Positions 3,946 to 46,206 of a stretch of 64,000 nt of DNA are shown one piece after another. Under the pieces are notes generated by a model. The model did no database searches. It was given only the letters and a program-made list of their open reading frames with translations, and had not been told where the DNA came from. Position 1 is the first letter of the stretch. Every line of letters starts with the position of its first letter. Source of the stretch: Phyllobates terribilis (lineage: Eukaryota); the NCBI RefSeq assembly GCF_046119375.1, contig NW_027362773.1, positions 135,098,001 through 135,162,000 of the forward strand. Direction: 5' to 3'. A program made the position numbers and the translations under genes.

Positions 3946-4165
3946 TTTAAACAGAGTGTCTTCTGAGCAGTTTGTCAGCTTTTGGACACCTTTGCAGGTG
4001 TTTTCTATGTGTTTCTATGTGTTTTTGTTTGCCTGCCATTGGTTTTAACGGTGTTCGACGGTGTTCTAAGGTGTTCGACGAACAGTTCGACGAACAGTTC
4101 CTCGAACATCCCGGTGTTCGACGAACCGAACCGAACCCGAACATTACGGGGGTGGCTCAACACTA

Positions 4166-4653
4166 GTAGTGAATCTCACAGTTCCAACTTGCCAACCGTG
4201 GGACCGTCAAGTGTTCAGCACTCAAACCGTAACAGAACCACAGTATCTGCTGGTAACATCAATTTTGCGGAATCATTTCACCACTTTTTTAGCCCATCCT
4301 TTGCAAGGCCACAGGAGACAAGAAGTCTGACACATAGTCAACGCCTAGAGACGATGGTACAGGAGTATCTCCAAGTAAACATTGAAGCCACGACTGTGTC
4401 ACTGGACCCTTTCTCTTTTTGGGCTTCCAATCTGGATAAATGGCCGGAGCTAGCCACTTACGCCTTGGAGATCTTGTCATGCCCCGCAGCCAGCGTTCTG
4501 TCTGAACGTGTGTTCAGCGCTGCTGGTGGTGTGCTGACAGATAAGCGCACGCGGCTCTCCACTGATAATGTAGACAGACTCACGTTCATAAAGATGAACA
4601 AATCATGGATCCGAAACGTCTTTTCTACCCCTGTGTCATCCTGGGGAGAGTAA
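4166..4653 (+). pseudogene. hAT transposase C-terminal fragment (hATC dimerisation domain)
   Basis: Translation DPFSFWASNLDKWPELATYALEILSCPAASVLSERVFSAAGGVLTDKRTRLSTDNVDRLTFIKMN matches the hAT dimerisation motif (W...P.L...A...L.CPA.S..SER.FS). The 5' part of ORF 3982-4653 is read-through from MITE DNA. Confidence 0.85.
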
Positions 4654-4976: not shown

Positions 4977-6352
4977 CCCAAACTTTTCGATCAACCTTTT
5001 CATTTTAATAAAGACCAAAAAAATGGTCATTTTTGAAATTATAAGCATTAGCAGGTTGTTAGAAACTGAAATCAAACAGTTTTCAACTCAAAACTTTATT
5101 CTAGGTGATGTTACATTTTCACATAGGACCCCTTGTTCGAAAGGAGCTTCTGAACTCTCTCGTCCATTGAATTTGTCAGGTTTTGGATGGTTTCTGCTTC
5201 AATTGTTTTGCATGAGGACAGAATACCCTCCCAGAGCTGTTGCTTAGATGTGAACTGCCTCCCGCCATCATAGACACTCCTTTTAATGATGCTCCAAAGG
5301 TTCTGAATGGGGTAGAGGTCAGGGGAGCATGGGGGTCACACCATAAGTTTGTCCCCTTTTATGCCCATATCAGCCAGAGATGCAGATGTTTTATGTGCAG
5401 CATGAGATGGTGCATTATCATGCAGAAAAATGATCTTGCTGTGAAATACACGGTTCTTCTTCTTGAACCATGGCAGGAAGTGCTGTTTGAGAAAATCCAC
5501 ATACATTATGGAGTTCATCTTTAGCGCCTTCAGGGATCCTAAAGGGGCCGACAATCTCTCTCCCCATGATTCCAGCCCAAAACATTACTCCACCTCCTCC
5601 TTGTTGGCGCTGTAGCCGTGTTTGCTTGGGGTGTCCATCAACCAGCCATCCTCCACTCCATTCATCTGGACCATCGAGCGCTGCACGGCACTCATCCGTG
5701 AACAAAACAGTTTTGAAATCAGTCTTCATGTAATGTTTGGCCCACTGGAGCCGTTTCTGCTTGTGTGAAGTGGATAGAGGAGGTCGACAGGATGGCATAT
5801 GCACAGCTGCAAACCTCTGAAGGACCCTGCATCTTGTTGTTCGGGGGACGTTGGAGGCACAAGCAGCTTCAAAAACTTGTCTGCTGCTATGACAAGGCTT
5901 TTTTGCCGCTGCTGTTTCAACCTGACGTAATTGCCTGTAGGAAAGAGTCCTCAATTTGCCCTTATCAGCACGCACACGTGTGTACTGTGAATCAGCTACA
6001 TACTTCTTGATTGCCAAGACACTTCATCCTGATCATCGCACAATGTTGATTGTAGTCATGCCTTGACCTAAACACTCCACAATTTGTTGCTTCTCAGCAG
6101 CCGACACATCCTTTTTCTTTCCCATTTTGGCAGAAGATGTAGGCTGCTTAATAATGTGAGAGAGCCTTCTTAAGTAGTCTTGCCTTTCATTGGACACACC
6201 TGCCAAACTAATTAGCACAGGTGTCTGCAATTGCTTACAGTGATATAAAGAGCCCTGACACACATCACCATCAATGAGTTTAACTGACAAACAAACAAAT
6301 TCTTCCCTTATCACTCCTAAACACTTTTTGCATAATAATTTGGAACGCGGTG
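4977..6352 (-). mobile_element. Tc1 transposon relic, copy 1 (one terminus missing)
   Basis: Frameshifted DD34E transposase pieces (VLFTDECRAALDG, GGGVMFWAGI, IIFLHDNAPSH). The terminus reads TA|CACCGCGTTCCAAATTATTATGC on the minus strand at 6352. Left boundary is approximate. Confidence 0.85.
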
Positions 6353-6424: not shown

Positions 6425-8123
6425 CTGTATGGAATTGTTCAATAAAGGGCCCAAAATTAAGATAACATAGATGGGAGAGGTCTCTATGAATAGGAATTCC
6501 TAAGTATTTGATACCCTGTGAGGGCCAGGCAAAGGGAAAGTTGGACTGGATGGAATCCTATATGGATTTAGGGAGGGAGACATCGAGGGCCTCAGACTTC
6601 GCTGCATTGATTTTAAAATTTTACCATGTAACAAAGTGATCTATTTCAGCCATAACAGCAGGGATGGATATATGTGATTGAGTGATATATACTAGGACAA
6701 CATCAGCAAATAGAGAGCACTTGTACTCGGTGCCTCCCACCTCAATCCACCTAATATTGGGGTTATGGCGAATTGATGAGAGCAGGTGCTCCGTCACTAG
6801 GATGTATAAGAGAGGGGACAGAGGACATCCCTGCCTTGTCCCATTGGTGATTGTGAAAGGTGATGAAAATGTTCTGACGCACCCCCTGGGCCTTGGGACA
6901 CCCGGAGCCGGACCCTTTTTGGTGGATGCTGGTGGTTGTAGTCTTCGTGGCGGCGATCCGGTTCCGTGGCTCAGGGCGGTCAAACCAGTGGCGGAACTAT
7001 TTATGTGGTTTTGATGTTTAAATGTCCGACTACGCCACCCGTGGATTGCGGTCAGAGTGAACCGCCGCTACAGGGCAGACCGCTAAGACTGGTGTTGTGG
7101 GTGCAGCAGAGCGTAGCATAACTCCCCACGGGAGGAGTATAGCCTCAGGGCAGTGTATGCGGAGGATGGGGGTGATGGTGCAGGGCAGCAGCAGTAACGA
7201 CACGGAGTCAGTGATGCAGTTCAGGGCCTTTACTCACAGTTCTTATTATCCAGACCACGTCTGCAGGTAACGGCTGCCCACGTCGTACTGTGCTCACCAG
7301 GTGAGGGGCTCAGACAACTCCCAGATAACTTTGGAGCGCTTCACAGGACCCCCTTTGTGTGTCCTTTGTCTGGCCTTTCTTACCAACACTTCTGTCCGGC
7401 TGCCTCGGGCCTCCTCTTGGTAAACTTGGCGCCAGTTTCCCTGACCCTATGTGGTGCCTTCCTAGCGGGTGGAGCAAGGGGCTGCGCCACATAAAATGTC
7501 AGAGCCTCCGGTTTCTAGCTGAGGGTCGTTTCCTGCCTCCACTAGTTCGGGGACCGGTCTCCCCCTTTGGCCTGACCCCTCCACGCAGGTGGATTCGGGC
7601 GTGCGGTGGCGACTCGCCCGTCCGCACCCCTGGGATCCCTTCATTCCTCGTTCCTGGAGCCTTCTCCGCTCCTCTTCCTTCCTTCTCCCTCTTGCAGGCC
7701 TGGGCCTCTGTTACTAGGCCCGCCTCCGGAGCAGAGCTCATGCAGAGCCCCTGCTCCCTGCCACTTCTGCTCAGACTTCTCTGCACTGAACTAAGATGGT
7801 GCCCACCTTTTATACTCCCTTCTCAATGCACCCAGGAACTGCTTCCTCCCTGCTCCTGCACTGCAGGGTTCCCCTTCCTCAGTGTTCCCTCCCCCCACTC
7901 CAGCCAGGGACAGGGACTGTCGTGCCCATCTCAGGGGCATATTGGTCGCCCTGCCCCACGGCAATGTGGTGTAATGCATGCAGGTGTCGGGTCCTGATCC
8001 ACACTCCATCCTTATCTGAGAGTGAGATATCACACCTCTGGGTGAGGTGCAATACGTCTGTAGCAACCGAGCCCTCGGTGCTACAGTTCCATTTATCTTC
8101 AGCCTAGGTGACGTATTGTGATA
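6425..8123 (-). mobile_element. LINE-1 ORF2 reverse transcriptase fragment, copy 1 (6425-6874 plus 8086-8123), split by a solo LTR
   Basis: NGTRQGCPLSPLLY...SLFADVVLVY...KYLGI motifs of the L1 RT domain. Confidence 0.85.
6875..8085 (-). mobile_element. Solo LTR related to the LTRs of the 18751-23234 element
   Basis: TG...CA ends. The minus-strand start TGTAGCACCGAGGGCTCGG resembles 18751. 4-bp TSD GTTC at 6871-6874 and 8086-8089. The empty site is visible in the duplicated segment at about 15721-15750. Confidence 0.92.
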
Positions 8124-10570: not shown

Positions 10571-13500
10571 CTATGAGGATCCTCCAGATCCCCTAGGCCC
10601 AGGCTTATCAGGAAACCTCCTTTGAAACGCTCTGACAAGTCTGGAAGCAGAAACATCATCCCCCCTCACCCATGAGTTATCCTCGGGACCGAAACCCTTC
10701 CAAGCGACGAGATACTGCAAACTCCCTCTATACCGTCTAGAATTAAGGATGCAGGAAATTTCATATTCCCCGTCCTCCACCACCGGAGGAACAGTGGCAG
10801 TGGCGTCTCTATCAGATACATCAGCTTTTTTCAATAGAGAAACATGGAACACCGGATTAATCTTCCAGGAGGTGGGAATCTCCAACCTAACAGCAGATTG
10901 GTTGACTACCTGAAGCACCTTAAAGGGCCCTACAAACTTGGGACTCAATTTTTTAGAAGGAATCCTCAACCGCAGATTCTTAGAGGACAACCAAACCATG
11001 TCACCAGCCGTAAACAAAACCTCTTGACGTTTCCTGTCAAAATACCTCTTAGATTTTTTGTTAGCCTCCTGTAGATTACCACGCACATCCATCCAAACTC
11101 TTTCCAAATCACCGGAAAAACTCTCCTCCTCAGGCACAGCCGATACCAATTTGGAGAATGACCCAAAAGACGGAGGTCTCCCAGAACAACAAAAAAAAGG
11201 CGAGCACCCAGCAGAAGAGGATATATGGTTGTTAAGAGCAAATTCAGCAAGCGCCAGAAACTCAGACCGCCCTTCTTGATTGTCTGCCACAAAACAACGC
11301 AAAAACTGCTCAACATCCTGGTTCTTCCTTTCTGTCTGGCCATTAGACTCAGGATGATATCTAGATGAAAATGACAAATGAACTCCCAACCTGTCACAAA
11401 AGGCACGCCAAAAACGAGCCACAAACTGAGGTCCCCTATCAGAAACAATGTCAGTAGGAAGACCATGGAGTCTGACAATCTCCTTGACAAAGGCCTTAGC
11501 GAGTGTCTTAGCGCAGGGCAGTTTGATGAAGGGAACCAAGTGACACATCTTGCTAAAATGGTCCATGACCACCCAGATGACCGTGAAACCCTCAGAGGGG
11601 GGAAGGTCAGTAATAAAGTCCATAGCCAGATGTGTCCAAGGTGCACTAGGAACCTCCAGAGGGCAAAGCAACCCCGCAGCAGGAGCATGCGAAGACTTAG
11701 ACCTAGCACACACAGTACATTGACGCACCCACTTAATGACTTCCTTCTGCCATCCAGGCCACCAAAAACTGCGACCCACAAGTCTCTTGGTCTCAGAAAT
11801 TCCTGGATGACCTGCCAACCGAGACTCATGACACTCAACAAACAAATCTCTCCTAAAGGTCCTAGGCACAAACAACCTCCCATGGGGAGTGTTAAATGGG
11901 GCATTCTCCTGAGCTTTAAGAATCTTATCTTCCAACACGGAGTCCAATGCAGCAATCACCACACCTTCTTGTAAAATGCTCTCCTCCTCCTCAGCACCGA
12001 CCATGGGAGAAAAGCTGCGAGACAAAGCATCAGCTTTAACATTCTTGGTACCCGGGATGTAAGTAACGGAAAAATTAAACCGCGAAAAAAAAAGTGCCCA
12101 CCTAGCCTGACGGGCATTCAAGCGCTTGGCAGCATCAAGATAGATCAGATTTTTATGATCAGTGAAAACCTGAATGGGAAATTCAGCACCTTCCAAGAGA
12201 TGACGCCAGTGTTCAAATGCGAGTTTAATAGCCAGCAATTCCCGATTACCAATATCGTAATTAAGTTCCGTCTCAGAAATTTTTTTTGAAAAAAAGGCAC
12301 AGGGATGTACTCCATCCTTGATTTCCTGAGACAAAACCGCACCGACCCCCACAGAAGAAGCATCAACCTCAACCAAAAACGGCTTAGTCACATCAGGCTG
12401 CATAAGGATGGGGGCAGAGCTGAACCTCTCCTTTAGAAACACAAAAGCTTCAATGGCCTCAGTAGTCCACTGAACCGTATTAGCACCTTTCCTGGTGAGA
12501 TCGGTCAGTGGTTTAACAATAATAGAAACATTTTTAATGAATTTTCTGTAGTAATTGGCGAAACCCAAAAACCTCTGTATCGATTTCAAACCATTAGACC
12601 TAGGCCATTCCTGCACAGCTTGAACTTTCACAGGGTCCATCTCAAAACCCTCACGGGAGATAATGTAGCCCAAAAAACTAATTCTCTGTACAGCGAACTC
12701 ACAATTCTCCAGCTTAGCAAAAAGCGAATTGTCAATCAATAACTGCAATACCTCACGTACGCTTCGCCAATGAGACTCCAGATCAGGCGAATAAATAAAA
12801 ATGTCATCCAAATACACAACCACATTTTTGCCGATCAAAGGTCTAAGGATGTCATTAATAAGATTCTGAAAAAATGCTGGAGCATTGGTAACACCAAAAG
12901 GCATAACCAGATTCTCAAAATGACCCACAGGAGTGTTAAAAGCAGTTTTCCATTTATCACCTTCCTTCATGCGCAACAAATTGTATGCCCCCCGGAGATC
13001 AATTTTAGAGAACCATTTGGCCCCCACTAACTGGTTAAACAAATCAGGAATCAATGGCAGTGGGTAGGGATTGCATACAGTAATTTTATTAATCTCGCGA
13101 AAGTCCAGACAAGGACGTAAACCGCTGTCCTTTTTTTTAACAAAAAAAAATCCAACAGCCACAGGTGACTTAGAGGGTCTGATATGACCGGCGGCCAAGC
13201 TCGTCTGTATGTATTCCTCCAAAGCCTTTCTCTCAGGAATAGTAAGATTAAATAAACGACTTTTAGGGAGAGTCGCTCCAGGGACAAATTCAATGGTACA
13301 ATCATAGTCTCTATGAGGAGGCAAAATTTGCGACTCCTCCTCAGAAAAAACTTTCCAAAAATCCTGAATAGGTACAGGTAATTCCCCTTTATTGTGCAAT
13401 TTTAACCAGGGCAAACCCAAAACTACTGGAGAAGGCAAATTATTTAATACCACCAAATCCAAATTTTCTTGGTGAATACCATTAATAGTGAGGGGAAATT

Positions 13501-14548
13501 CATAAACCTTGTGAGTAACACATTTCAAGGGAGAAGCATCGACAGAAACCACGGCAATAGGGGATGACAAAGGTTTGGGTTTTAATTTAAGTTTTTCCAA
13601 GAATCCCCCATCAATCACATTCAGAGTAGAACCACAATCCACAAATACCCGAAATTCAATTAATTCTTCCTGAGCAGCGGTAGTAGCAGAAAGAAATACC
13701 CCCTTAGTATTTAAACAGGCTATACGGGCGTAACTGACCTTTTTTTTTTCTTTGTTCATACGAAGCACACAGTTCTTAATGAAATGGTCAGATTTTCTGC
13801 AATAAAAGCACAAACCTTCAGAAAATCTGCGGTCGTTTTCCTGAGAGCAGGGTGACATCGCCCCAATCTCCATCGACTCTCCAATGTCAGTACAGACCCT
13901 CTCAGAACTCGGAGCTGACATGGCAGAGGATTTACTCTCATTAACCCTTGCATGCAGTCTCCTGTCCACCTGTATAGCTAATTGCATTGCCTCCTGCAAG
14001 TTTCCAGGTGTAGGATTAGCAATCAGCAGATCCTTAACCCTTTCACCTAGCCCGGCAAGAAACAAACTTTTCAGAGCAGAATCGTTCCACTCCACCTGAG
14101 CAGACCACCGACGGAAGTGAGTACAATAATTTTCCACATTACCTGATCCCTGCCTCAAATGTCTCAATTCCATCTCAGCTGATGAGACACGATCAGGATC
14201 ATCATACAAAAACCCCAAAGCAGAAAAAAAACTATCCACTGATCTAAAGCACGGATAACTAGGTTGGAGAGAAAAGGCCCATCCCTGAGGTTCCTTGCGC
14301 AAAAGTGACATTATGAACCCTATGCACTGTGATTCATCACCAGAGGATCTGGGTCTTAAATGAAAATACAATAAACAAGCATTTTTAAAGGAAAAAAAAT
14401 CTTGTTGTTCACCAAAAAATAAATCAGGCAAACGTACCTTTGGCTCTACAAAATGCGCTCCAGAACAGCTACTCATGTGTTGTTGGAGCTCGGCCACCTG
14501 CAGAGAGAGTCCCTGCAAGCGTTGAGCCAAATTCTGAACCGACACCAT
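10571..14548 (-). CDS. Gag-Pol polyprotein, 1325 aa (Gag, CCHC knuckle, protease, RT, RNase H, integrase, chromodomain)
   Basis: CFYCRKSDHFIKNC knuckle; VFVDCGS protease; YLDD RT; VEVDAS/ELLAI/FTDH/ADALSR RNase H; HHCC plus D-D-E integrase (LAMDF, IVSDRG, QTER); C-terminal YEISCIL...QYLVAWKGFGPEDNSW chromodomain. No stop or frameshift. Confidence 0.95.
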   Translation of the reverse strand: MVSVQNLAQRLQGLSLQVAELQQHMSSCSGAHFVEPKVRLPDLFFGEQQDFFSFKNACLLYFHLRPRSSGDESQCIGFIMSLLRKEPQGWAFSLQPSYPCFRSVDSFFSALGFLYDDPDRVSSAEMELRHLRQGSGNVENYCTHFRRWSAQVEWNDSALKSLFLAGLGERVKDLLIANPTPGNLQEAMQLAIQVDRRLHARVNESKSSAMSAPSSERVCTDIGESMEIGAMSPCSQENDRRFSEGLCFYCRKSDHFIKNCVLRMNKEKKKVSYARIACLNTKGVFLSATTAAQEELIEFRVFVDCGSTLNVIDGGFLEKLKLKPKPLSSPIAVVSVDASPLKCVTHKVYEFPLTINGIHQENLDLVVLNNLPSPVVLGLPWLKLHNKGELPVPIQDFWKVFSEEESQILPPHRDYDCTIEFVPGATLPKSRLFNLTIPERKALEEYIQTSLAAGHIRPSKSPVAVGFFFVKKKDSGLRPCLDFREINKITVCNPYPLPLIPDLFNQLVGAKWFSKIDLRGAYNLLRMKEGDKWKTAFNTPVGHFENLVMPFGVTNAPAFFQNLINDILRPLIGKNVVVYLDDIFIYSPDLESHWRSVREVLQLLIDNSLFAKLENCEFAVQRISFLGYIISREGFEMDPVKVQAVQEWPRSNGLKSIQRFLGFANYYRKFIKNVSIIVKPLTDLTRKGANTVQWTTEAIEAFVFLKERFSSAPILMQPDVTKPFLVEVDASSVGVGAVLSQEIKDGVHPCAFFSKKISETELNYDIGNRELLAIKLAFEHWRHLLEGAEFPIQVFTDHKNLIYLDAAKRLNARQARWALFFSRFNFSVTYIPGTKNVKADALSRSFSPMVGAEEEESILQEGVVIAALDSVLEDKILKAQENAPFNTPHGRLFVPRTFRRDLFVECHESRLAGHPGISETKRLVGRSFWWPGWQKEVIKWVRQCTVCARSKSSHAPAAGLLCPLEVPSAPWTHLAMDFITDLPPSEGFTVIWVVMDHFSKMCHLVPFIKLPCAKTLAKAFVKEIVRLHGLPTDIVSDRGPQFVARFWRAFCDRLGVHLSFSSRYHPESNGQTERKNQDVEQFLRCFVADNQEGRSEFLALAEFALNNHISSSAGCSPFFCCSGRPPSFGSFSKLVSAVPEEESFSGDLERVWMDVRGNLQEANKKSKRYFDRKRQEVLFTAGDMVWLSSKNLRLRIPSKKLSPKFVGPFKVLQVVNQSAVRLEIPTSWKINPVFHVSLLKKADVSDRDATATVPPVVEDGEYEISCILNSRRYRGSLQYLVAWKGFGPEDNSWVRGDDVSASRLVRAFQRRFPDKPGPRGSGGSS

Positions 14549-14585
14549 GATGGAACTGGAGGTCTTTCCTTAGAGAAATTTTTGG

Positions 14586-18099: not shown

Positions 18100-20029
18100 G
18101 GACCCCGGACCCATACTGAGCGCTAAGAGCTGGGACATCTCAGCGCTGCTTTCCTCTGTGTAGCAGTGCAGCGCTGCTGGGGTAGCGCTGCTGTGGCAGC
18201 GCCTTCATAATTCCCCTGACTTCCGGTCATGTGACGGCGCCGTCACATGGCCGGAAGTCAGGACAACCTGGTGGCAGCAACGTGGACGAGCGCCAGGATT
18301 CTGGAGGGATCGCATGGGGGTAAGTATAACAAGTTTTATTTTTTTTTAAATACAATTAATTAACTAGGAGTGGGGAGAATCAGAGATGCACAGGGGGATG
18401 AGAGATGCACATGGGGGGGATGAGATGTACATGGGGGGGATGAGAGATGCACGGGGGGGATGAGATGCATGGGGAGGGTGAGATGCACGGGGGAAGTAAG
18501 TGCACTGGGGAGTGCACGGGTAATGTTGTGGGACCCGTGCTTATGGAAGGCGGAGAGGATACCGGAAAAAATCGTGGCGGTTGGGGACCTAGTATGGATA
18601 CCCGGTCGGCGCCGCCATAAGATTGTGGACAGCTTCCGCGTCCACGAGCCTAAAAGGCAACATTTCAAGTGCAAGCAGCTGCCAAGAAATCTGGCAGTTT
18701 AGTATTGTGGCCTGTGGGAGGGTGGGTGGCTGGCTGCATACTTGCACTTGTGTAGCACCCCGAGGGCTCGGCTGCTACAGGGGTATTGCACCTCGAACCA
18801 GAGGTGTGGTATTCCACTCCCGGGTAAGGATGGAGTGTGGACTAGAATTCAGTTAGCTGCATGCACGACATACATCCCATTTCCGGGGGACAGATCAACG
18901 GTACTCCCACCAGATAGATGTGCAGGTACGACAGCGTCTGTCCCTGGCTGGAGTGGGAGGGGGGGAGGAATATCCCAGTGGTGCAGGAGCAGAGAGGGGA
19001 GGGACTCTTGGCATAGGAAGGAGCCCATTGGTGGCTAGTCACCTGGGCTCGGGTGTCAGAGAGAGTATAAAAGGTGGGCACCATCTTAGGAGTGAGGGGA
19101 GTTCAGTCAGACAGAAGAAGAGGAGAAGAGTAGTGACAGGGAGCAGCAGCCCTGTCTGGGTGCTGCTCCTGAAGGGAGCAAGAGAGAGAAAGACAAAAGG
19201 AACAAGGAACAAGGAAGGAATGGAACCTGGAGAAAGGCCCAGAGACATGAAGGAAGAGGGAACCCTAACACGCTAGGAGTCTGCGGGTGAAGGGTTGGCA
19301 GATCAGGGTACCGAATCCCAAACTGGTGGAGGCCACTTATCCTCAGCCAGGAACCGGAGTCATGGCCACGTCTTGGCGCGACCACTCACTACACTCACCA
19401 CGAAGGCACGCCACATAGGGTCAGGGAAACCGGAGAAAGGTTTCGCCACCAGAAGGCCCGAGGAAGCTGGACATGGGTGGGTCCCTAGTGGGGACGGCCA
19501 GAGAAAGGAACGGAGAAAGGAGTTCAAGGTCACACTCTGGAACTGCCTGGGGGTTGGTCGAGCCCCGTACCTGGTGGACGCAGCACGGCTCGGGTCGTCA
19601 TCACCTGCAGGACTGACACTGATAACATCTGTGAGTAAAGCATTGAAAACTGCAATCAGTCTCTGTGTTCCATCGCACTACCAGCACTAAAGGTACCGGG
19701 ACGCTCTTTCTATCACTCCCTTCACCCGCACCAGCTGCCCTGAGGCCATACCTCTCCCGTTGGGGGTTATACCACCATTGCTGCACACATACCGCCGGCC
19801 TCAGCGGACTGTTCTGCAGCGGCGGCCTTGCGACCGCAAATCAACGGGTGGCGTAGTCGACACTTAAACAACATCTACAAAGACTGCCACACACTTAGTT
19901 TGACCACCCTGGGCACGGACCGGGTCCCCGCCACTCGGAGACTACTACCCCCATCGGATCCGGCTCCGGGTATTCCCCCGCGCACACGTGCGCCGCACTA
20001 CAGCACTGGCCCAGGGGGCGCGTCAACTT

Positions 20030-20047
20030 TGGCGTAGTCGGCAGGAT
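20030..20047 (+). promoter_or_regulatory. Primer-binding site for tRNA-Ser
   Basis: TGGCGTAGTCGGCAGGAT is the exact complement of the 3' 18 nt of vertebrate tRNA-Ser (...ATCCTGCCGACTACG-CCA). It starts 5 nt after the 5' LTR. Confidence 0.92.
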
Positions 20048-20453
20048 CTCGTGCCCGTAACCACCGGGTACTGCGTGCCTGAAAAAGAGACTTTTTACTT
20101 GCCTGTGGTGAAGTTTCCCGCCGTCCGGGGTCGTTTCCCGCCATCCGGAGCCGATTCCCGCCATCCGACGCCATCTTCTGCCTTCTTCCCGCCATCCGTG
20201 GAGTTTTCCCGCCATTGGACGCCATCTTGAGGACGCCGCGCGGGAAGAAGAGGGGCGTGGAATCCGAAAGCCCGCGAGAACTGAAGCCCCGCCTCACGTC
20301 CGGACGTTGCGTAAGGTCCTGGAAGGAGCCCAGCGACGCCGACGTCACAGGAGCGCGACGGAAGGTCCTCAACCCTGACGATCCACTGCGGAGCCGCGGC
20401 CTACGGAAGAGGATCATCGCCAGGTAGGCCACGGTCCATTAGGGGGGAGGAGG

Positions 20454-21507
20454 ATGTCGGATACGGAGGAGAACTTCACCGCCACAGCCGCCATACCAGA
20501 TTGCAGAGCTGCTAGCGGTGCTCCAGAAGGAAGAACCGGAGTACGCGCAGGCCGCGCTGGAGGAGCTGAACAGGAGGATGACCTGGGCGCAACGAGACGT
20601 GCTCGCCGGGTGGAAGGAGGAGTTGACCCGGCGCACGCTGACCTGCCAACCGGAGGTGCAGCCACCATCCAGCACCGCGTCCATCCCGAGAGGCAGCAGA
20701 AGCGGACCGGAGGCCGGGGACGACGCCGCGGGGGAGGCCGCAACGACAAGTAAGGGGAAAGCCGTTACTCCGGGCCCTGAGGCCGCGGACCTGCCCCTAC
20801 CTCCCGCCGCGGGACCCAAAGCTCTGGGTGCCGCACCGCCCACCGTACCTCCACCACCAGTAGTCAGCCCTCCAGCAGCAAGCTCTGCAGCGGAGCCTCG
20901 CCCTGAACCGTGCTCCCCAACACCGGGCACGATCAGAAAGTCACCGGCCTGGTTAAAAGGCCGAGTGCCCGCGGGCGCTGCACCCCAGCCGGGGCCCCCA
21001 GTCGTGCCATCATTGGGGAAAGACCTGTATGAGCAGCACACCTGCCCGGATGGGACACCATTCGTCTGGCCGCCTGGGTACACCAACCCCCGCTCCAGGA
21101 AGAGTCACCCCGTAGGAGTGGCTCCACATTAAAAACGTGGAGCAGAAGACAAAGGGCCGCCAGGACCCCCTCCCCGTACAGCTCATGGTCCCCGAGTCAC
21201 CGGGACTGTTGTTAAGTTTCACATGGCATGTGGCTGGGGCATCATCTAAGACCTGAAGACCATAAGCCGGGTGTTTGTTAACCGGAGCGACGTAGAGTCC
21301 CACCTACCGGAGGGGCACAGTGGACGGGACCTGGTGCCTGGAGATACCGTCACCTATACCAGGCATAAGGGAGTGAAGGGGTGGTACGCCCTTCATGTCC
21401 ACCGGGTCAAGGAGGAGGAGGAGCTATCGTACCAGGAGGAGAAGAAAGAGGGCCCGGACGGGTCTGAACCTGAGGAAGAGAAAGGAGCGTGTGGAGGACA
21501 CCGTTAA
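20454..21507 (+). pseudogene. Disrupted ORF: helical N-terminus, Pro/Ala-rich linker, cold-shock domain, acidic tail
   Basis: ORFs 20518-21132 and 21271-21507 are in the same frame, separated only by TAA at 21130 and TAA at 21247. 21196-21408 translates VTGTVVKFHMACGWGII*DLKTISRVFVNRSDVESHLPEGHSGRDLVPGDTVTYTRHKGVKGWYALHVHRV, collinear with CspA/YBX cold-shock domains. The start codon (ATG 20454, different frame) is uncertain. Confidence 0.8.
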
Positions 21508-24500
21508 TCGTAAACGGTAAAAGAGGAGATGTAAATAGTTACCCGACCGGGTATAAGGACTGTTGTGGGACTGTTTCCACTAAGAGTGTGGTCCCCGTTG
21601 GGACAGAAAGAGAACTGTTGCCTATTTTTGCCCTAATCCCTAACCTGACCGAGGACTGAGAGCGGTCATCCCTTCCCTCTACCTGGCCGAAGACTGAGAG
21701 CGGCCAGATCCCAAGATCCCAAGAACCCGAGAATTCAAGAATGTTTTATTTGAGAATGCCTTAATGTGAAATTTGATATGATGCCAAAGTTTTACATAGT
21801 GTTTTTGTAAAAGAGTTCCGGTGGCATTAGCCAGCTGTTGAGAAAACCTCCCATAAAGGGATGGATGAAAGTTGATGTGTTTTATGTGTACGTACACTTT
21901 AAAAATTGTTTTTACTCTATTTCAGCCCGAGGACGTGCTGTGGTTTACCAGGGGGGAATGTAGCACCCCGAGGGCTCGGCTGCTACAGGGGAATTGCACC
22001 TCGAACCAGAGGTGTGGTAATCCACTCCCGGGTAAGGATGGAGTGTGGACTAGAATTCAGTTAGCTGCATGCACCACATACATCCCATTTCCGGGGGACA
22101 GATCAACGGTACTCCCACCAGATAGATGTGCAGGTACGACAGCGTCTGTCCCTGGCTGGAGTGGGAGGGGGGGAGGAATATCCCAGTGGTGCAGGAGCAG
22201 AGAGGGGAGGGACTCTGGGCATAGGAAGGAGCCCATTGGTGGCTAGTCACCTGGGCTCGGGTGTCAGAGAGAGTATAAAAGGTGGGCACCATCTTAGGAG
22301 TGAGGGGAGTTCAGTCAGACAGAAGAAGAGGAGAAGAGTAGTGACAGGGAGCAGCAGCCCTGTCTGGGTGCTGCTCCTGAAGGGAGCAAGAGAGAGAAAG
22401 ACAAAAGGAACAAGGAACAAGGAAGGAATGGAACCTGGAGAAAGGCCCAGAGACATGAAGGAAGAGGGAACCCTAACACGCTAGGAGTCTGCGGGTGAAG
22501 GGTTGGCAGATCAGGGTACCGGATCCCAAACTGGTGGAGGCCACTTATCCTCAGCCAGGAACCGGAGGTCGTGGCCACGTCTTGGCGCGACCACTCACTA
22601 CACTCACCACGAAGGCACGCCACATAGGGTCAGGGAAACCGGAGAAAGGTTTCGCCACCAGAAGGCCCGAGGAAGCTGGACATGGGTGGGTCCCTAGTGG
22701 GGACGGCCAGAGAAAGGAACGGAGAAAGGAGTTCAAGGTCACACTCTGGAACTGCCTGGGGGTTGGTCGAGCCCCGTACCTGGTGGACGCAGCACGGCTC
22801 GGGTCGTCATCACCTGCAGGACTGACACTGATAACATCTGTGAGTAAAGCATTGAAAACTGCAATCAGTCTCTGTGTTCCATCGCACTACCAGCACTAAA
22901 GGTACCGGGATGCTCTTTCTATCACTCCCTTCACCCGCACCAGCTGCCCTGAGGCCATACCTCTCCCGTTGGGGGTTATACCACCATTGCTGCACACATA
23001 CCGCCGGCCTCAGCGGACTGTTCTGCAGCGGCGGCCTTGCGACCGCAAATCAACGGGTGGCGTAGTCGACACTTAAACAACATCTACAAAGACTGCCACA
23101 CACTTAGTTTGACCACCCTGGGCACGGACCGGGTCCCCGCCACTCGGAGACTACTACCCCCATCGGATCCGGCTCTGGGTATTCCCCCGCGCACACGTGC
23201 GCCGCACTACAGCACTGGCCCAGGGGGCGCGTCACTTGCATTCCAAGTAACAGAAAACTAAGCAGATGGTAGCCTCTATCATCGTCATGGCCTCACCTCG
23301 GCACTATGAACTCTACTGAAGGAGAAGCCAAGGCCCACCAGAGGAGTTTCCAGTTCTCTGGTGGGCCCATTCAGTCCTGCCGAGAAGCAGCCCTGGCAAT
23401 CAAAAGTGTGGGGGAAGGTTCCCGGACACTCTATGGCTGCTTTTTTAATGTGGATTGGACATGCTTATGCATATTATTTCTCAAACCGCATTGCAGATCA
23501 GGCCATTGCCCAACACTGTATTCATGAAATTAAATGTGCAAAGAAAGATGTTTGTATGTCAAAGCACCACCGACAAGTGTGAGTTGATGTTGGACGGGCT
23601 GCCATTGCTTCTGCAACAACCTGCATTAGAGGACTTCCTGGGAGAAATACCACCCAGGGTGGATACATTTTCCCTCTATGCCAGTCCTTTCACCGAGATA
23701 AATACAACTGTCAGCAAAAAAATCTGTGGACTGGCTTCGTATCATCCCTGGCCACATTCATCTGGAGAAATAGTGGAGGATGAGGACGGAGTATGGGCAT
23801 CCGGTCGCCGCCACCATAAGATTGTGGACAGCTTCCATCTCCACAAGCCTAAAAGGCCACATTTCAAGTGCAAGCAGCCGCCCAGAAATCTGGCAGTTTA
23901 GTATTGCGGCCTGTGGGATTGTGGGTGGCTGGCTGCATACTTGCGCTTGCATTCGAAGTAACAGAAAACTAAGCAGATGGTGGCCTCTATCATCGTCATG
24001 GCCTCACCTCAGCACTATGAACTCTCCTGAAGGAGAAGCCAAGGCCCACCAGAGTTGTTTCCGGTTCTCTGGTGGGCCAGTCCAGCCCTGCCAAGAAGCA
24101 GCTTTGGCAATGAAAAGTGTGGGGGAAGGTTCCCGGACACTCTTTGGCTGCTTTTTTTATGTGGATCGGCCATGCTTATGTATGTTATTTCTCAAACCGT
24201 ATTGCAGATCAGTCCATTGCCCAACTCTGTAGTCATGAAATTAAATGCGCAAAGAAAGATGTTTGTGTGTCAAAGCACCACCGACAAGTGCGAGTTGATG
24301 TTGGACGGGCTGCCATTGCTTCTGCAACAAGCTGCATTAGAGGACTTACTGGGAAAAATAACACCCAGGGTAGATACAGTTTCCCTCTATGCCAGTCTGT
24401 TCACCGAGCTAAATACAACTCTCAGCAAAAAAAAGCTGTGGACTGGCTCCGTACCATCCCTGGCCACATTTACCTGGAGAAATAGTGGCGGCTGAGGACG

Positions 24501-39885: not shown

Positions 39886-42142
39886 CGGGCTGTTCATTAA
39901 CTTCATTATAGCAGCAGCACGCAAGCAAGCACAACGCCACTAAATCCTCCTCCCCCTATGAAGGCCCGGATGACGTCGGCTGCATTTAGTACTCCGCAGC
40001 AGCTGGGACCTTCAGAGAGAGAGGAGAGAGGACAGCGATTCTCCTTCCCCTCTGCAGGGCTGGATGCTGATTGGTGGAGGGACCTGTTGCTAATCAGCCT
40101 CCACTAGTGATGAGCGAGTACCGTAATATTCATAATCGCTATACTCATAACGAGTACTTTGTAATAATCGCGTATTCGTTCCGAATAGCGAGTACAATGC
40201 AAGTCAATGGGAAATGCGAGCAATTTTCTGCTGGACCCAACAAAGGGGTCTGGGGGCCTGAGGAAAAGGCTGAAATGGATGGGAAAGTGATGAAACAGAA
40301 TGGGAAGAGCCTGGAGAATATGCCTGCATGCATTTCTGACTCACATATGGTTTCTGGGAATAAGTTTGTCGCAGTATTACGCCACTTTTACAGACACACA
40401 AGAACAACTACCAAACCTAGCTTAAATTGCATTTAACAGGCCAAAAAGGTTAAAAAACTGTTTTTCCTGCACAATCACTTTTATACAAGGCTAAATAAAC
40501 CAGATAAACAAAAAAAATATCCCATTTAGCGCTTGTTCACGCATACTGTTGTGGCTTTTGTTCGCCTTTTACAATTGGGAGGGCCCTGACTTTCACATTA
40601 TGTAGGTCCCTCTGTCATACATCATTTTTAGTTCGCTATTCCCCAGCACTTTACAAGCACAGCTAGAACGTATTAGTAGTTATGTTGATCTTTGAGCTGA
40701 GAGGCCTCAGGTGGCTCTGTAACATGCGTTTTGGAGGGACAGCTGTTACTAAGACATTTGGGCGGTCCCTCAATCATTGACACTCAGATAGTGGAATACA
40801 TATTCAATAGCAGTTTACAATGTGCCCATTGTAGCGTTGGGCTTGACCCTCCTCCTCCTCCTCCTCCACCACCATGTGACACTGCGGCCCTAAATTCAAA
40901 TGTTCAGCGGGCCTGCGGTAGCTGACTTTTGTGAGAGCCCTCGTGTGGCCCTGTAACATACATTTTGAAGTGTCCTCCTCTAGAGATTTTGGAGGTCCCT
41001 CTTGTGTACAATACATTTGAGAGTGCCCTCACTTATTCATATTGTAGGGCCCTCACTCTATTATTTAACTCATTTAAGGGCAGAGACTACAGAGAAAAAG
41101 GAAAAGAGATATGAAGTACTACAAGGTAGCAGTAATTGCGGCCTGCGATCCGCAGGTATAGCTGAGCTCTGTGAACCGGAAAAATAAAGCTTCACTAGTC
41201 AACTGGATGACGAACTCAAATATATCACTTGTGCAAGTCAATGGACAAAGGATATATGGTGCCCCCCCTCCAGGATGGGTTGGAGAAGCTTCTCCAAATG
41301 GCTCAGAGATTTTGATTGTCAATATTCCCCAGATTATATAGGAAGAGATACTGTACTACTTGATCCAGTGCAGAATGTGCATCGTATTTTCAAAAATTAC
41401 TCCTGGGGGCTGTGTCATAGGTGAAGGAAGATTCCATGACAAGGGCCTCCCTTGACAAACATTATATACGATGGAGTACTGTAGTAGTTGTGGCCCTCAA
41501 TTCAAGTTTTCAGAGGGCCATCAGTCGGTCATCAACAGTCAGTGTAAATTTCTATTGAATATGTATCCCCTATCTCAGTCACAATTTGGCACAACCTGTG
41601 ACAAGAGCCTCCAATGACAAATATTACTTTGGTAGTACCACTGTACATTCCAGATTTGTCCACTTCACAATGTGCATAGTGTTTGTAAAAACTAGCCCTA
41701 TGGGCTGAGTGAAAGTTGACGCAGGAGGCCACCATCCCAAGGGCCTCCAATCACAAATAGTAGTTAGGCTGGAGTAGGAATACTGTCCTGGTTTGTCCAC
41801 TGCACAATGTGCATAGGGTTTGTAAAAATTAGCCCTATGGGCTGAGTCATGGTTGACTCACTATTTTGGCTGTGACAGCTAGCTTGGCTTGTGCCATCAA
41901 CATCTGATAATCTGTCAACAAAACCCAAAATGCCAAAATAGCCTGTTGTTAAGGGATGTGAACGCGAACATGGTGTTGTCAGTGGTGCGCGAGAAGGCAC
42001 TCAGTCTGTGTCAGGTCAGAAGAAGCTTGATGCATTCACTATGTTCCTGGAAAAATTTCCCAGTCTGGAACATAAATGTGTGTGGAAGCCAGAAGAGTGA
42101 GAGCAGATTCTGTCTTGGATAGAAGACAAGGCCTCTACGCAT

Positions 42143-45100
42143 TTGCCAAGCAGCAACAAATCTTCCATGACCACAGAGTCTACTGTGGATACACAGAAAG
42201 CTGGCCCATCCAATCCTGAAGCTGGTTCTCCTTCCTCCCGCCATTATCATTTACAGGAGACATATGACCCCAAGCTTGTCCACTCCGAGGATCTGTTTGG
42301 TACCTATCTTCTGGTTGGCTCTGGCCTATCACCGTGCAGCTTTGAAGAGGGACAAGAGGAGGTGGCATGCGTTGATGCTCAAGTATTTGAGGACATACGG
42401 CCAGAAGAAAGCCACTTGGAGGAACGTCATTTACTGTCTCCAGAGGTGGAGGCTGATGATGATGAGCCACAGTTGCCATCAGGTCAGCCTACAATGTCAA
42501 CTGGGAAGGAGGATGAGATGGAAGACGAGGTGGTCGATGATGAGTCCACAGATCCGACCTGGAACGTTGGCACGCATAGCCATGACAGCAACACAGAGGA
42601 AGATGGATATGTATCACCAACACAAGCACCAAGGGGTCGTGGTTTGCCCAGAGTGAGAACTGGGTCAACTGTTCTCAAGAGCATCCCCGCTGTGCGCCAA
42701 GTCAGGGCAAGGAGGCGTTCAGCTGCTGTGTGGAATTTTTTTTCTGAAAGTCCTTCAGAGAAAAACATTGTAGTCTGTAGCATCTGCCATACCAAGTTGA
42801 GCAGAGGCCAGGGCAAAGGCAACCTGAGCACCACCAGTATGCAAAACCACATGGCAGCCAAGCACCCCAGTAGGTGGGCGGAACACCAGGGTACCAAATC
42901 TGCATCTGCAGATCAAACCAATGGTATGTTGCCTGGGCTATGTCCTTCAGCATCTGCTGTTCACGTAGCAGGCACTCATACCTCCTGCTCACAAACTGCT
43001 GTTGCTCACACACAACAAACATTAATCACATCCACTTCCTTGTCCCAGCGAAGCGTCCAATTGTCCGTGCCTGAGAGCTTGGAAAGAAAGCGTAAATACC
43101 CAGCCACCCATAGGCACAAATACTAAACTCGCACATTGCCAAATTGCTAGCTCTGGAGAATTTGCCATTTAGGCTTGTGGGAACACAGTCTTTCCATGAT
43201 CTCTTGGCTGTGGCTGCTCCAGGATACAGTGTTCCCAGCTGCCACTATTTTGCCCGATGTGCCGTCCCTGCGTTATACAAGCACGTGTTAAGCAATCTGA
43301 ACCGTGCTCTCACCAAGGCCGCAACCGGGAAGGTCTACCTAACAACAGACACCTGAACAAGTTGTTGGGGACAGGGATGATATATTTCTGTCACGGCACA
43401 CTGAGTGAACCTGGTGGAGGGTGGGACAAAGGTGCAAACTGGAACATCAGACATCCTACCCACACCAAGAATAGCAGGCCCAACTTCTGTCAGGGTTTCC
43501 GCCTCTTCATATTCCACTTCCTCTTTCCCCTCCTCCTGGTCCTCATCCTTTGCTGAATTACCCTCCCCATCACTGCCAAGCTGGGACCTGTGCAGCAGCC
43601 CATCAGCAAAGCAGCAACATGCTCTGCTGAAGCTGATCTGTTTAGGTCAGAAAGCACACACTGCAGCAGAGCTTTTGCAAGCTTGAAAACAACAGATCGA
43701 TCAGTGGCTCTCCTCACTGCACCTCCAATCCGGTCTGGTCGTCTGCGATAATGGGCGTAATTTGGTGGCGTCTTTAAAGGTCGGCAAGCTGGTACACGTG
43801 CCATGCATGGCTCACGTGCTGAACCTAGTTATTCAGAAATTTCTGAAAACTTACTGTGACTTGCTGTACCTATTTGAGAAGGTATGCCATATTAGCGCCC
43901 ATTTCCACCATTCCTCTACTGCTTTTGCTGCTTTTACAGCACAGCAAAAGCGCTTGAATTTGCCATGCCACCGACTCATTTGGAACCTGCCAACGCGGTT
44001 GAACTCAACCTATCATATGGTGGCGAGGATTAGTGAACAGCAAAGGGCAGTAGCTGAATACTAGCTTAAACATGTCCGTCAGACTGAAAGTCAGCCACCA
44101 CACATAACAACTGTCGAGTGGGTGTGGATCGCTGACAGTTGTGAGGTTCTTAAGAACTTTGAGTACTGTACCAACCTCGTGAGCGATGATCAGGCTATTA
44201 TCAGCGTAACCATCCCACTGCTGTGTCTCTTGAAACAATCACAGCATAATCTCAAAGAAGAAGCTTTGAGTGCCCAGCATGTTGGTATGGAGCCAAATAT
44301 CCCAATGGGTGATACTACCCAGCCCAGCCAATATTCTGAGGCAACATTGGGTGATGAGGAGGAAGATGAGGAGGGAGAGGACTTGTTTTTCTGTGCTACC
44401 AAGGGGACTCGTAATGCTCCAGAGGGGACACCCAACCCAAGCTTCATGTCTGTCCAGCCTGGATGGGCTGGAGAGGAAGAGGTGGAGCAGGAGGAGGCGA
44501 GTCAGCATGAGGAGAAGATGGGTACTGTTTCTACTGTTGGGGACACAGAACATTTGCCTTTTTGCAGCTTGGCACAGTTCATGTGTAAGTGTATGTAGCA
44601 AGACCCTTGCATGATACACATTTTATCCAACAATAATAATAATAATAATTTTTATTTATATAGCGCAAACATATTCTGCAAAACTTTACAATTAAGCGAG
44701 GACATGTACATATAATAAATTCAATACAAGGTAATACAGTTTAAACAATTAGATTAGGAGTGAGGTCCCTGCTCGCAAGCTTACATTCTACAAGGAAATG
44801 GGTGGGCACAATAGGTGAAAAGTGCCTGTTATTTCAGGTCTGGTGATTATAATAAGTAGGCATTTTCATGTAAATCTGCATGATAAGGTCATTAGCCAGT
44901 ATGCTTAAGTACAATAATCAAGTATTGAGTGCAGTTATCGTGTGCATGGAGGGTGCGGAGACAGGTAAATAGTAGGGTGCAGATTCTGAATAATATTTAG
45001 AAGGAGGGAACAGGGGAAAGTTAGTTTACTGAGTAGTTGAGGTGGTAGGCTTGTTTAAAGAGATGGGTTTTTAAAGTGCGCTTGAAGACGTGGGGGCTAG

Positions 45101-46206
45101 GCATCAGTCGGATCATCTGGGGTAGAGCATTCCAGAAAATTGGTGCAGCATGAGAGAAGTCTTGGAGACGGAGGTGCGAGGTTCGGACTATGGGGGATGT
45201 TAGACTTAGGTCATTTGTAGAACAGAGGTCATGTGTAGGGCGATAGGCAGAGATGAGAGAGGAGAAATAAGGCGGTGCAGAACTGTGGAGAGCTTTGTGG
45301 GTGAGAGTGATGAGTTTATATTGGACCCTGTAGCGAATGGGCAACCAGTGTAATGACTGGCACAAGGTGGAGGCATCGGTGAAACGGCTGGACAGAAATA
45401 CGACCCTAGCTGCTGCATTCAGTATGGATTGGAGATGAGAAAGTTTGGTAAGAGGGAGATCGATCAGAAGAGAGTTGCAGTAGTCCAGACGAGAGTGAAT
45501 AAGAGCGACAGTAAGAATTTTAGCAGTTTCAAAGGTGAGTAAAGGTCGGATTCTTGAGATGTTTTTAAGATGCAGGTGACAAGAGCGACCTATAATGGTT
45601 GGCCACCTTTCTCGATCCACAGTACAAGGAGAAATTTCCTTCTCTCCTTTTGGAGTCACCATAGAGTTTTACAATGGAATTGTTCAAGAGAGCCATTGTA
45701 GATCAGTTGCTGAAAACATCACCCTCAGACAATGCTGGTGGCAGAGGTACCAGCTCTTTTCAACACCAAGGAATAATGGGGAGAGACACGAACACCAGAG
45801 GTGGGGGGAAATGTGCACAAATTGGGCAATTTTCAATAAACCAGCACAACAGCAAGGGCTATCTGTGCCTGTAACAATGCCAAGGAGGGATAAGTTGCAG
45901 AACATGGTCAAGGGGTACTTAAGTGACCATACGTGCGTCCTTTCTGACGCTTCAGTTCCCTTTAATTATTGTGTGTCTAAGCTGAACACTTGGCCCGACC
46001 TCTCCTTATATGCTTTGGAGGTTCTGGCCTGCCTGGCTGCTAGTGTGGTGTCAGAGCGTGTTTTCAGTCCAGCTGGGGCAATTATCACTGATAGGCGCAC
46101 ACGCCTCTCCACGGAAAATGCAGACAGACTTACTCTGATTAAATTCAACAAGGACTGGATATCTCCACAGTTTGTAATCCCTCCAGATAACAGCAAGCCA
46201 ACCTAA
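42143..46206 (+). pseudogene. hAT transposase pseudogene (BED finger, RNase H-like core, hATC domain)
   Basis: SAAVWNFF...CSIC...HMAAKH BED finger; YLTTDT and DNG catalytic regions; HVPCMAH CxxH motif; WPDLSLYALEVLACLAASVVSERVFS hATC. Several stops and frameshifts, and an L2 insertion. Confidence 0.9.
44631..45590 (-). mobile_element. 5'-truncated L2-type LINE (ORF2 C-terminus, 3' UTR, (ATT)n tail)
   Basis: Peptide LIHSRLDYCNSLL...LQSILNAAAR...LHWLPIRYRVQYK; (AAT)n on plus at about 44631-44648. It splits the hAT ORF between DPCMIHILSNN and WLATFLDP. Confidence 0.88.

Follow-up and report, generated by a model that had tools for sequence, protein, structure and literature searches.

A stretch of 64,000 nucleotides from Phyllobates terribilis (contig NW_027362773.1, positions 135,098,001 to 135,162,000; hereafter, the window) carries at 18751..23234 a long terminal repeat (LTR) retrotransposon that belongs to a protein-coding LTR family of poison frogs, probably dependent on a helper and larger than was seen from the window alone. 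The element is a non-autonomous LTR retrotransposon, in which paired LTRs with TG...CA ends, a primer-binding site (PBS), a polypurine tract (PPT) and a target-site duplication (TSD) are all present. Members of the family, here called satellites, have no reverse transcriptase (RT) or integrase, and the same genome contains an autonomous element whose cis signals match theirs. The open reading frame (ORF) of the family ends in a cold-shock domain (CSD) and, as judged from comparisons of natural copies, is under purifying selection, which is strongest in the CSD and a charged helix. A Ty3/gypsy element with a PNMA-like Gag is the likely helper according to the signals that both elements share. 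The copy in the window is a dead, broken and chimeric member of the family and cannot make the family protein. The original prediction, made from the window, had proposed that a CSD protein is encoded by a non-autonomous LTR family itself, and this proposal is supported by an ORF that is open in 21 of 32 sampled copies.

The genome searched (G000, 10.57 Gb), which holds the window, contains 24,571 exact occurrences of the family-type 3′ junction, including derivatives without the CSD, and 32,316 exact occurrences of the LTR-primer junction. At about 4.9 kb, 24,571 copies amount to about 120 Mb, or 1.1% of the assembly, with solo LTRs excluded. The first 50 LTR-PBS junctions on contig C1 comprise 32 satellites, 16 gag-bearing copies and 2 others; this sample covers the first 16 Mb of one contig and needed an exact junction, and therefore favors young copies. 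In the 21 open satellites of this sample, the ORF with the CSD runs from ATG to stop. LTR pairs of the sampled satellites are 98.4-100% identical, and a 4-bp TSD is present in 32 of 37 full family copies (mean length, 4.9 kb). A search of the genome for the CSD yielded 33,380 first-look candidates, and the 150 that were scored all exceeded the cut-off; among 30 loci read, 20 belong to one dispersed family, 8 are CSDE1-like, 1 is Y-box-like and 1 is divergent. At 80% likeness, 29-30 of 30 bins are represented in contigs of four sequencing runs, which bear three organism labels; the RNA status of these runs is guessed or unclear, leaving them silent on expression. No GT-AG joint was seen among the 15 joints listed, of 57 in all, in the contigs of these runs. 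Some elements form head-to-tail arrays with regular 2.4-3.4-kb spacing, apparently with common LTRs (L020-L022 and further pairs and triples). A PBS stretched to more than 30 nt of tRNA-Ser, instead of the usual 18, occurs in some elements (L081 and G000:C11:491747817-491754629), and three extended-PBS matches lie 3,391 nt apart, resembling a tandem array.

The family protein was analyzed in 34 natural open ORFs, including 21 from the junction sample and 13 from the top CSD matches. These ORFs encode 507-630 aa, start about 250 nt past the PBS in one start context, and fall into 15 clusters at 41-89% identity. In the natural protein, the CSD is C-terminal (residues 440-507 of 545), placed after a 45-residue charged helix and followed by about 35 acidic residues. 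Y-box proteins have an N-terminal CSD and then a long tail of alternating charge. The Y-box layout that had been assigned to the window element is therefore not supported by the natural domain order, and the CSD lies outside the Y-box-like rows of the tree described below; the satellite protein also differs from Y-box proteins in having no long basic/acidic tail and in changed Trp and His positions. When the window frame was searched with X at its stops, the sole Pfam match was PF00313 (E 1.2e-5, 25.5 bits; cut-off 27), and open copies scored 39.6 and 36.9 bits and an intact sibling 27.0 bits, which upholds the CSD first recognized in the window. An AlphaFold2 model built on a 22-sequence alignment has a mean pLDDT of 48 and is confident only for the helix at residues 385-429 and the barrel at 438-508; helices at 107-156 are of moderate quality and the rest is poor. 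The CSD is modeled as a five-stranded OB barrel, with a block pLDDT of 65-86 save in one loop, and Foldseek returned 1mjc (CspA) as the best match to the model (E 1.2e-6, target TM 0.85), together with cold-shock proteins and YBX1/2. The predicted fold is the same as that of YBX1, YBX2 (FRGY2) and CspA, with 34-36% identity over about 70 residues, and the loop length resembles that of YBX1, with one gap versus YBX1 and five versus CspA. Twenty CSD columns are invariant over both satellite classes. Among 16 aligned copies, W103 is invariant and F105 and F116 are nearly so, the three aromatic positions of the ribonucleoprotein (RNP) motifs being retained. A profile of the ORF did not match helper Gag-Pol, and no Pfam Gag family matched the ORF, the poorly folded N-terminus of which could still hide remote homology. 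The N-terminal 160 aa retrieved nothing from the ESM Atlas, and the N-terminal and helical parts matched no family. In the youngest subfamilies (L061-L063, L072-L076 and others), the ORF frame is open upstream through the PBS into U5, and some of these copies have an in-frame ATG near the LTR end.

Pairwise counting among the 15 cluster representatives gave a median dN/dS of 0.35 for the whole ORF, with all 105 pairs below 1, in agreement with the conserved frame and the dN/dS below 1 that the original prediction had set as a check on the genomic copies. The median is 0.12 in the CSD (87 of the 105 pairs were usable; the others had too little or saturated dS), 0.18 in the charged-helix region (88 pairs), 0.36 in the first helix (105 pairs), 0.52 in the linker (104 pairs) and 0.59 in the N-terminus (102 pairs). 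In 7 hand-picked pairs, the CSD showed dN/dS of 0.08-0.29 at dS of 0.5-1.9, with bootstrap upper bounds of 0.21-0.59, and the shifted and reverse frames of these pairs gave 0.91-7.8 for the CSD and 0.92-1.30 for the whole ORF. A low value (0.38-0.94) was also obtained for one shifted frame of the N-terminus, where selection is therefore less clear.

Regarding the autonomous partner sought since the original prediction, a Ty3/gypsy helper was found that does not carry the ORF. Eight young gag-bearing copies were fetched in full, of which seven have a 5.8-6.0-kb interior and 1.0-kb LTRs that are 99.1-100% identical, and one is internally deleted. Pfam analysis of the helper revealed a PNMA-like Gag (below the cut-off), a CCHC knuckle, protease, RT, RNase H and integrase, and no chromodomain. 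Satellite and helper are alike at the LTR 3′ end, the PBS and about 350-500 nt around the PBS, at 72-77%, and they also share the termini, the tRNA-Ser priming, the PPT type and the 4-bp TSD. In contrast, the U3/R and 3′ region are the satellite's own, Gag-Pol is missing from it and its ORF is unrelated; neither the 5′ part of its LTR nor its 3′ region is similar to the helper. The CSD is absent from gag-bearing copies of both the young class (0 of 8) and the older class (0 of 8), and none of these 16 copies is an autonomous element that carries the CSD in a third ORF. In the helper L150, gag and pol form a single 1720-codon frame, unlike most other helpers, which have separate overlapping frames. 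An open 1332-aa gag-pol frame of a chromodomain-bearing Ty3/gypsy element lies in the window itself (10574-14569, minus strand); it was considered as the helper and rejected, as it belongs to another lineage and has no similarity to the element.

A second PBS type, presumably matching tRNA-Ser(CGA), has 1,198 exact matches, and the first 30 of its junctions comprise 14 satellites, 12 gag-pol elements, 2 gag/CSD chimeras and 2 others. As the LTR pairs of this second satellite-helper pair are 93-97% identical and its frames are broken, it represents an older wave. The U5-PBS region of 14 old satellites matches the helper of its own class at 138-363 bits and that of the other class at 38-54 bits, and for 4 young satellites the corresponding scores are 181-293 versus 56-106 bits, the shared PBS contributing part of all these scores.

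Among solved structures, the best relatives of the intact sibling CSD are YBX1 and YBX2 (E about 0.007-0.02), and CspA and YBX1 are recovered with similar significance (E 2e-8 and 9e-8, respectively) by a profile built from 15 natural copies. When 1.84 billion representatives were searched with the family CSD profile, six proteins scored 58-141 bits and all others 41.5 bits or less, the rest of the top 150 matches being mostly multi-CSD proteins. The six are labeled Phyllobates terribilis, Ranitomeya variabilis (2), Ranitomeya imitator and Anomaloglossus baeobatrachus (2), and are annotated as uncharacterized or CSD-containing. The Ranitomeya and Anomaloglossus relatives presumably sit inside LTR elements. 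Repeats are usually masked before gene calling, and thus the protein search does not limit the range of the family outside these genera. A word-based protein search returned nothing with the 166-aa sibling ORF and one protein with the C-terminal 206 aa, and the ESM Atlas gave just generic CSD clusters, under 0.9. A tree of 62 CSD rows and 71 columns was built with the 30 best-scoring outside rows of about 280, including three Y-box-like rows and no named vertebrate YBX or LIN28 rows. In this tree, a single branch unites the 23 family rows with 2 divergent G000 rows (94/100, with bootstrap not settled and weak deep support), and the satellite CSDs occupy their own long branch apart from the Y-box-like and CSDE1-like groups, the latter including host CSDE1-like copies. 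This placement is in line with the view that the CSD is not a recent YBX capture. A processed pseudogene or a recent capture of a host CSD was likewise rejected, as the best non-family CSD scores 41.5 bits versus 58-143 bits within the family. The divergent CSD type is represented by L041 (G000:C4:791520011) and L216, which lie 17 kb apart, are 88% alike and have no LTR pair assigned. This type retains the RNP2 His, and its long branch is placed with the satellite clade; either an older family or a host gene that has settled may be represented here. Tandem intron-less CSDE1-like copies (L031-L036, G000:C1:734436000-734450000) were also observed, in one of which the frame enters LINE-like sequence.

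The window copy lies on the plus strand between two CTTG duplicates (18747..18750 and 23235..23238). Its 5′ LTR (18751..20025, with TGT...TCA ends) and 3′ LTR (21959..23234) are 99.3% identical across 1276 columns. The 5′ LTR contains a TATA-like TATAAA at 19066 and a poly(A)-like AGTAAA at 19634; it is satellite-specific to about 19717, and the segment 19718-20025, common to the helper at about 75%, is probably U5. The 18-nt PBS (20030..20047) has the same sequence in the helper and complements the 3′ end of genomic tRNA-Ser(AGA) and tRNA-Ser(TGA) genes, with tRNA genes at two of four loci checked. With the PPT at 21950..21958, the LTR pair of about 99% identity, the 4-bp TSD, the tRNA-Ser PBS and the PPT of the original prediction are all borne out. 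An older LTR-like stretch with 65% identity to the LTR of the element is found at 6930-8090 on the minus strand.

The interior begins with a helper-derived patch (20050..20489, left border approximate) consisting of the leader and the first 12 gag codons, with an ATG at 20454. Downstream are a remnant of the family ORF with the helical segment, the Pro/Ala linker and conserved LGxDL...WP motifs (20490..21114), a break region (21115..21198) in which 217 nt of the conserved charged-helix region are gone and a stretch out of the family frame follows, the CSD (21199..21405, Pfam PF00313), a short acidic tail with a stop codon (21406..21507), and a family-specific 3′ untranslated region without helper similarity (21508..21949). 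The interior had been described as having no recognizable gag knuckle, RT or integrase; in the frame 20518-21507 no gag, RT or integrase domain was matched by Pfam, but the helper leader and gag codons do constitute a remnant of gag in the interior. The single frame 20518-21507 is also real, with stops at 21130 and, inside the CSD, at 21247, but it is not the reading of the family. The 217-nt stretch missing near 21115 is kept in 21 siblings, and its loss causes about 60 nt downstream to be read in another frame, leading to the stop at 21130. In the siblings L017, L020-L023 and L027, the stop of the upstream frame overlaps the ATG of a 166-168-aa helix-plus-CSD frame. Coupled translation was considered for this overlap and set aside, as a frameshift fits better given that the downstream frame is open in just 6 of 21 siblings.

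The mosaic structure of the window copy is evident from identity along its length. Positions 19401-20000 and 20501-20700 are 92-100% identical to the satellite L007, and 20201-20400 is 94-100% identical to three helpers versus 39-57% to the parent satellite type. The helper patch is out of frame with the satellite ORF and supplants the family's own start and about 100 N-terminal codons. The helper-satellite junction of the window recurs exactly in 232 copies, and in all 30 nearest copies the frame is interrupted between the first helix and the CSD. In 28 of 28 nearest copies in which the motif was found (of 30), Ile replaces Phe in RNP1, which is GWGII in the window's lineage and GWGFI in the remaining family. 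A reciprocal chimera, in which 99 Gag residues are joined to the acidic tail without the CSD, is present in more than 140 near-identical copies among 150 scored. Helper-satellite mosaics have at least three independent origins, which would be expected of two RNAs packaged together. The 232-copy junction, the closed frames and the CSD-less chimera together imply that the gene is selected in the main lineages and is not required in cis for spread. The window's lineage, which lost the gene and gained the helper leader, would move as a non-coding passenger.

To explain these features, we consider an enzyme-less LTR family copied by its helper, in which the CSD protein binds the satellite's own RNA and favors its stability and entry into helper particles; we give this explanation an even chance. 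Very probably, helper Gag-Pol would package, reverse-transcribe and integrate satellite RNA through the shared U5, PBS, PPT and termini, a dependence that follows from established retrotransposon biology together with the shared signals and the mosaics. The protein would probably be made in the germ line and bind single-stranded nucleic acid. That the benefit would go mainly to the encoding RNA, so that selection retains the gene, is a somewhat bolder step that we still favor. For selection to act, the lineage that encodes the gene must benefit, and the simplest role for a CSD carried on a long helical arm would be that of an RNA-binding factor for the message that encodes it. In a related setting, the available text of PMC6040738 describes YB-1 as supporting HIV RNA metabolism and virion production. 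Several observations weigh against own-RNA binding. The helper has its own CCHC nucleocapsid and, without a CSD, multiplied similarly (28,909 3′ junctions including short derivatives); spread without the gene in cis speaks against a strict packaging role; and the mosaics could equally come from gene conversion at the DNA level. The N-terminal 100 aa have no confident fold in the AlphaFold2 model, the pairs compared for dN/dS share ancestry and are not independent, and the simple counting method biases their values downward. The Trp and His positions of YBX1, which contact RNA, are Lys/Arg and Thr/Asn in the satellite CSD.

A different role, which we regard as unlikely, would be counter-defense, with the protein shielding the element from host silencing and packaging left to helper Gag; it might strip its RNA of Y-box masking proteins or of small-RNA machinery, or act at the LTR promoter. 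Such a role would accommodate strong selection on the CSD and charged helix alongside faster change of the N-terminus and linker, the Y-box-like loop length of the CSD, and the spread of non-coding lineages, which fits a trans-capable product. The available text of PMC6278860 also reports abundant Gypsy RNA in the ova of a related poison frog. However, no region has dN/dS above 1 in the pairwise tests, a purely trans-acting product is open to free riders and hard to maintain by selection, and a host target is without direct evidence. The partners would instead co-amplify as a two-part element, rather than as parasite and host, if the satellite's accessory protein also boosted the helper. Both families recently expanded to similar numbers, and the older satellite and helper decayed together (14 satellite-only versus 12 gag-pol among the first 30). 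A joint rise and fall is nevertheless equally expected of a dependent parasite, selection on the satellite gene requires a benefit to the satellite, and none of the 16 helper copies has taken up the ORF; we regard a partnership of this kind as improbable.

It is more doubtful still that the ORF is a remnant third gene or a diverged Gag of an unfound or extinct autonomous element, with satellites as its deletion derivatives. Just 16 gag-pol copies were examined in full and the N-terminal and helical parts match no known family, which leaves some room for such an origin; the mammalian MaLR family offers a precedent as a Gag-only non-autonomous LTR family. BHIKHARI Gag is another, according to the accessible part of PMC13269885. 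Nonetheless, there is no match to helper Gag/Pol or to any Pfam Gag family, the ORF starts about 250 nt past the PBS, a single conserved start context is shared by 34 copies, and selection holds across pol-less subfamilies that are just 41-45% identical. Finally, the frame might have no function, being open from youth alone or merely to spare the RNA from decay, and indeed most sampled copies are very young and dead lineages spread too. This explanation is scarcely credible and is largely refuted by the low CSD dN/dS of the hand-picked pairs, which is specific to the frame, by the 20 CSD columns invariant across satellite classes, and by relatives in two other frog genera. Returning to own-RNA binding, a wider reading, possible although on balance doubtful, is that of a true satellite retrotransposon with its own evolved hijacking protein (a captured CSD on a charged-helix arm), which has followed one Ty3/gypsy helper after another from before the dendrobatid-aromobatid split, is itself parasitized by non-coding cheaters and helps drive genome gigantism. 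If true, retrotransposons would have an equivalent of phage satellites and helper-dependent viruses.

Several known systems share single features with the satellite family. Mouse ETn and MusD have the LTR and leader in common and unrelated interiors, ETn being a non-coding element of betaretrovirus type. The satellite family is likewise paired with an autonomous element, as the accessible text of PMC3183085 describes for non-autonomous ETn and autonomous MusD; it differs in its probable dependence on Ty3/gypsy and in keeping a 500-630-aa gene under purifying selection. In birds, 46 endogenous retroviruses (ERVs) with a CSD (pfam00313) are described in the available part of PMC12287698, with several independent captures and a suggestion of adaptation, so that capture of a CSD by LTR retroelements is a shared feature. 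According to the same part of PMC12287698, these elements are retroviruses found by RT, with the domain at varying places. In contrast, the satellite family has no RT, numbers tens of thousands of copies and carries the CSD at the end of its only ORF, and it offers a testable case for why CSDs are repeatedly captured by retroelements. BHIKHARI and mammalian MaLR elements have no polymerase, and the MaLR ORF is single and lies between the LTRs. One ORF between LTRs is likewise found in zebrafish BHIKHARI, according to the accessible text of PMC13269885. In both, however, the ORF is Gag or Gag-derived, whereas the satellite ORF shows no homology to Gag and has a domain of host RNA-binding type at its end. 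LINE-1 is an autonomous non-LTR element, the ORF1p of which has a long helix followed by an RRM and acts on its encoding RNA; the analogy is functional only, as the satellite has a CSD instead of the RRM.

Non-autonomous elements are usually taken as non-coding or Gag-only, and the satellite keeps an unrelated, predicted host-type RNA-binding gene under strong selection, in young copies that number tens of thousands. Because helper, coding satellite and non-coding cheater occur side by side in two dated waves, packaging competition could be studied from sequence alone. No published account of the satellite family or of a CSD-coding non-autonomous LTR family was found in a literature search that could miss relevant work and did not cover Repbase/Dfam and subscription journals, and the word "cold" is absent from the main text of the frog papers PMC6278860, PMC12822217 and PMC12208295. 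The available text of PMC12208295 gives 62.6% of reads as unclassified in repeat data of giant poison-frog genomes, and the satellite family names one component of this largely unclassified fraction. Elsewhere in the window there are many minisatellites. The segments at 3967-4650, 42101-46203 and 5421-6023 are, by eye, what we take to be hAT-like and Tc1-like transposase fragments.

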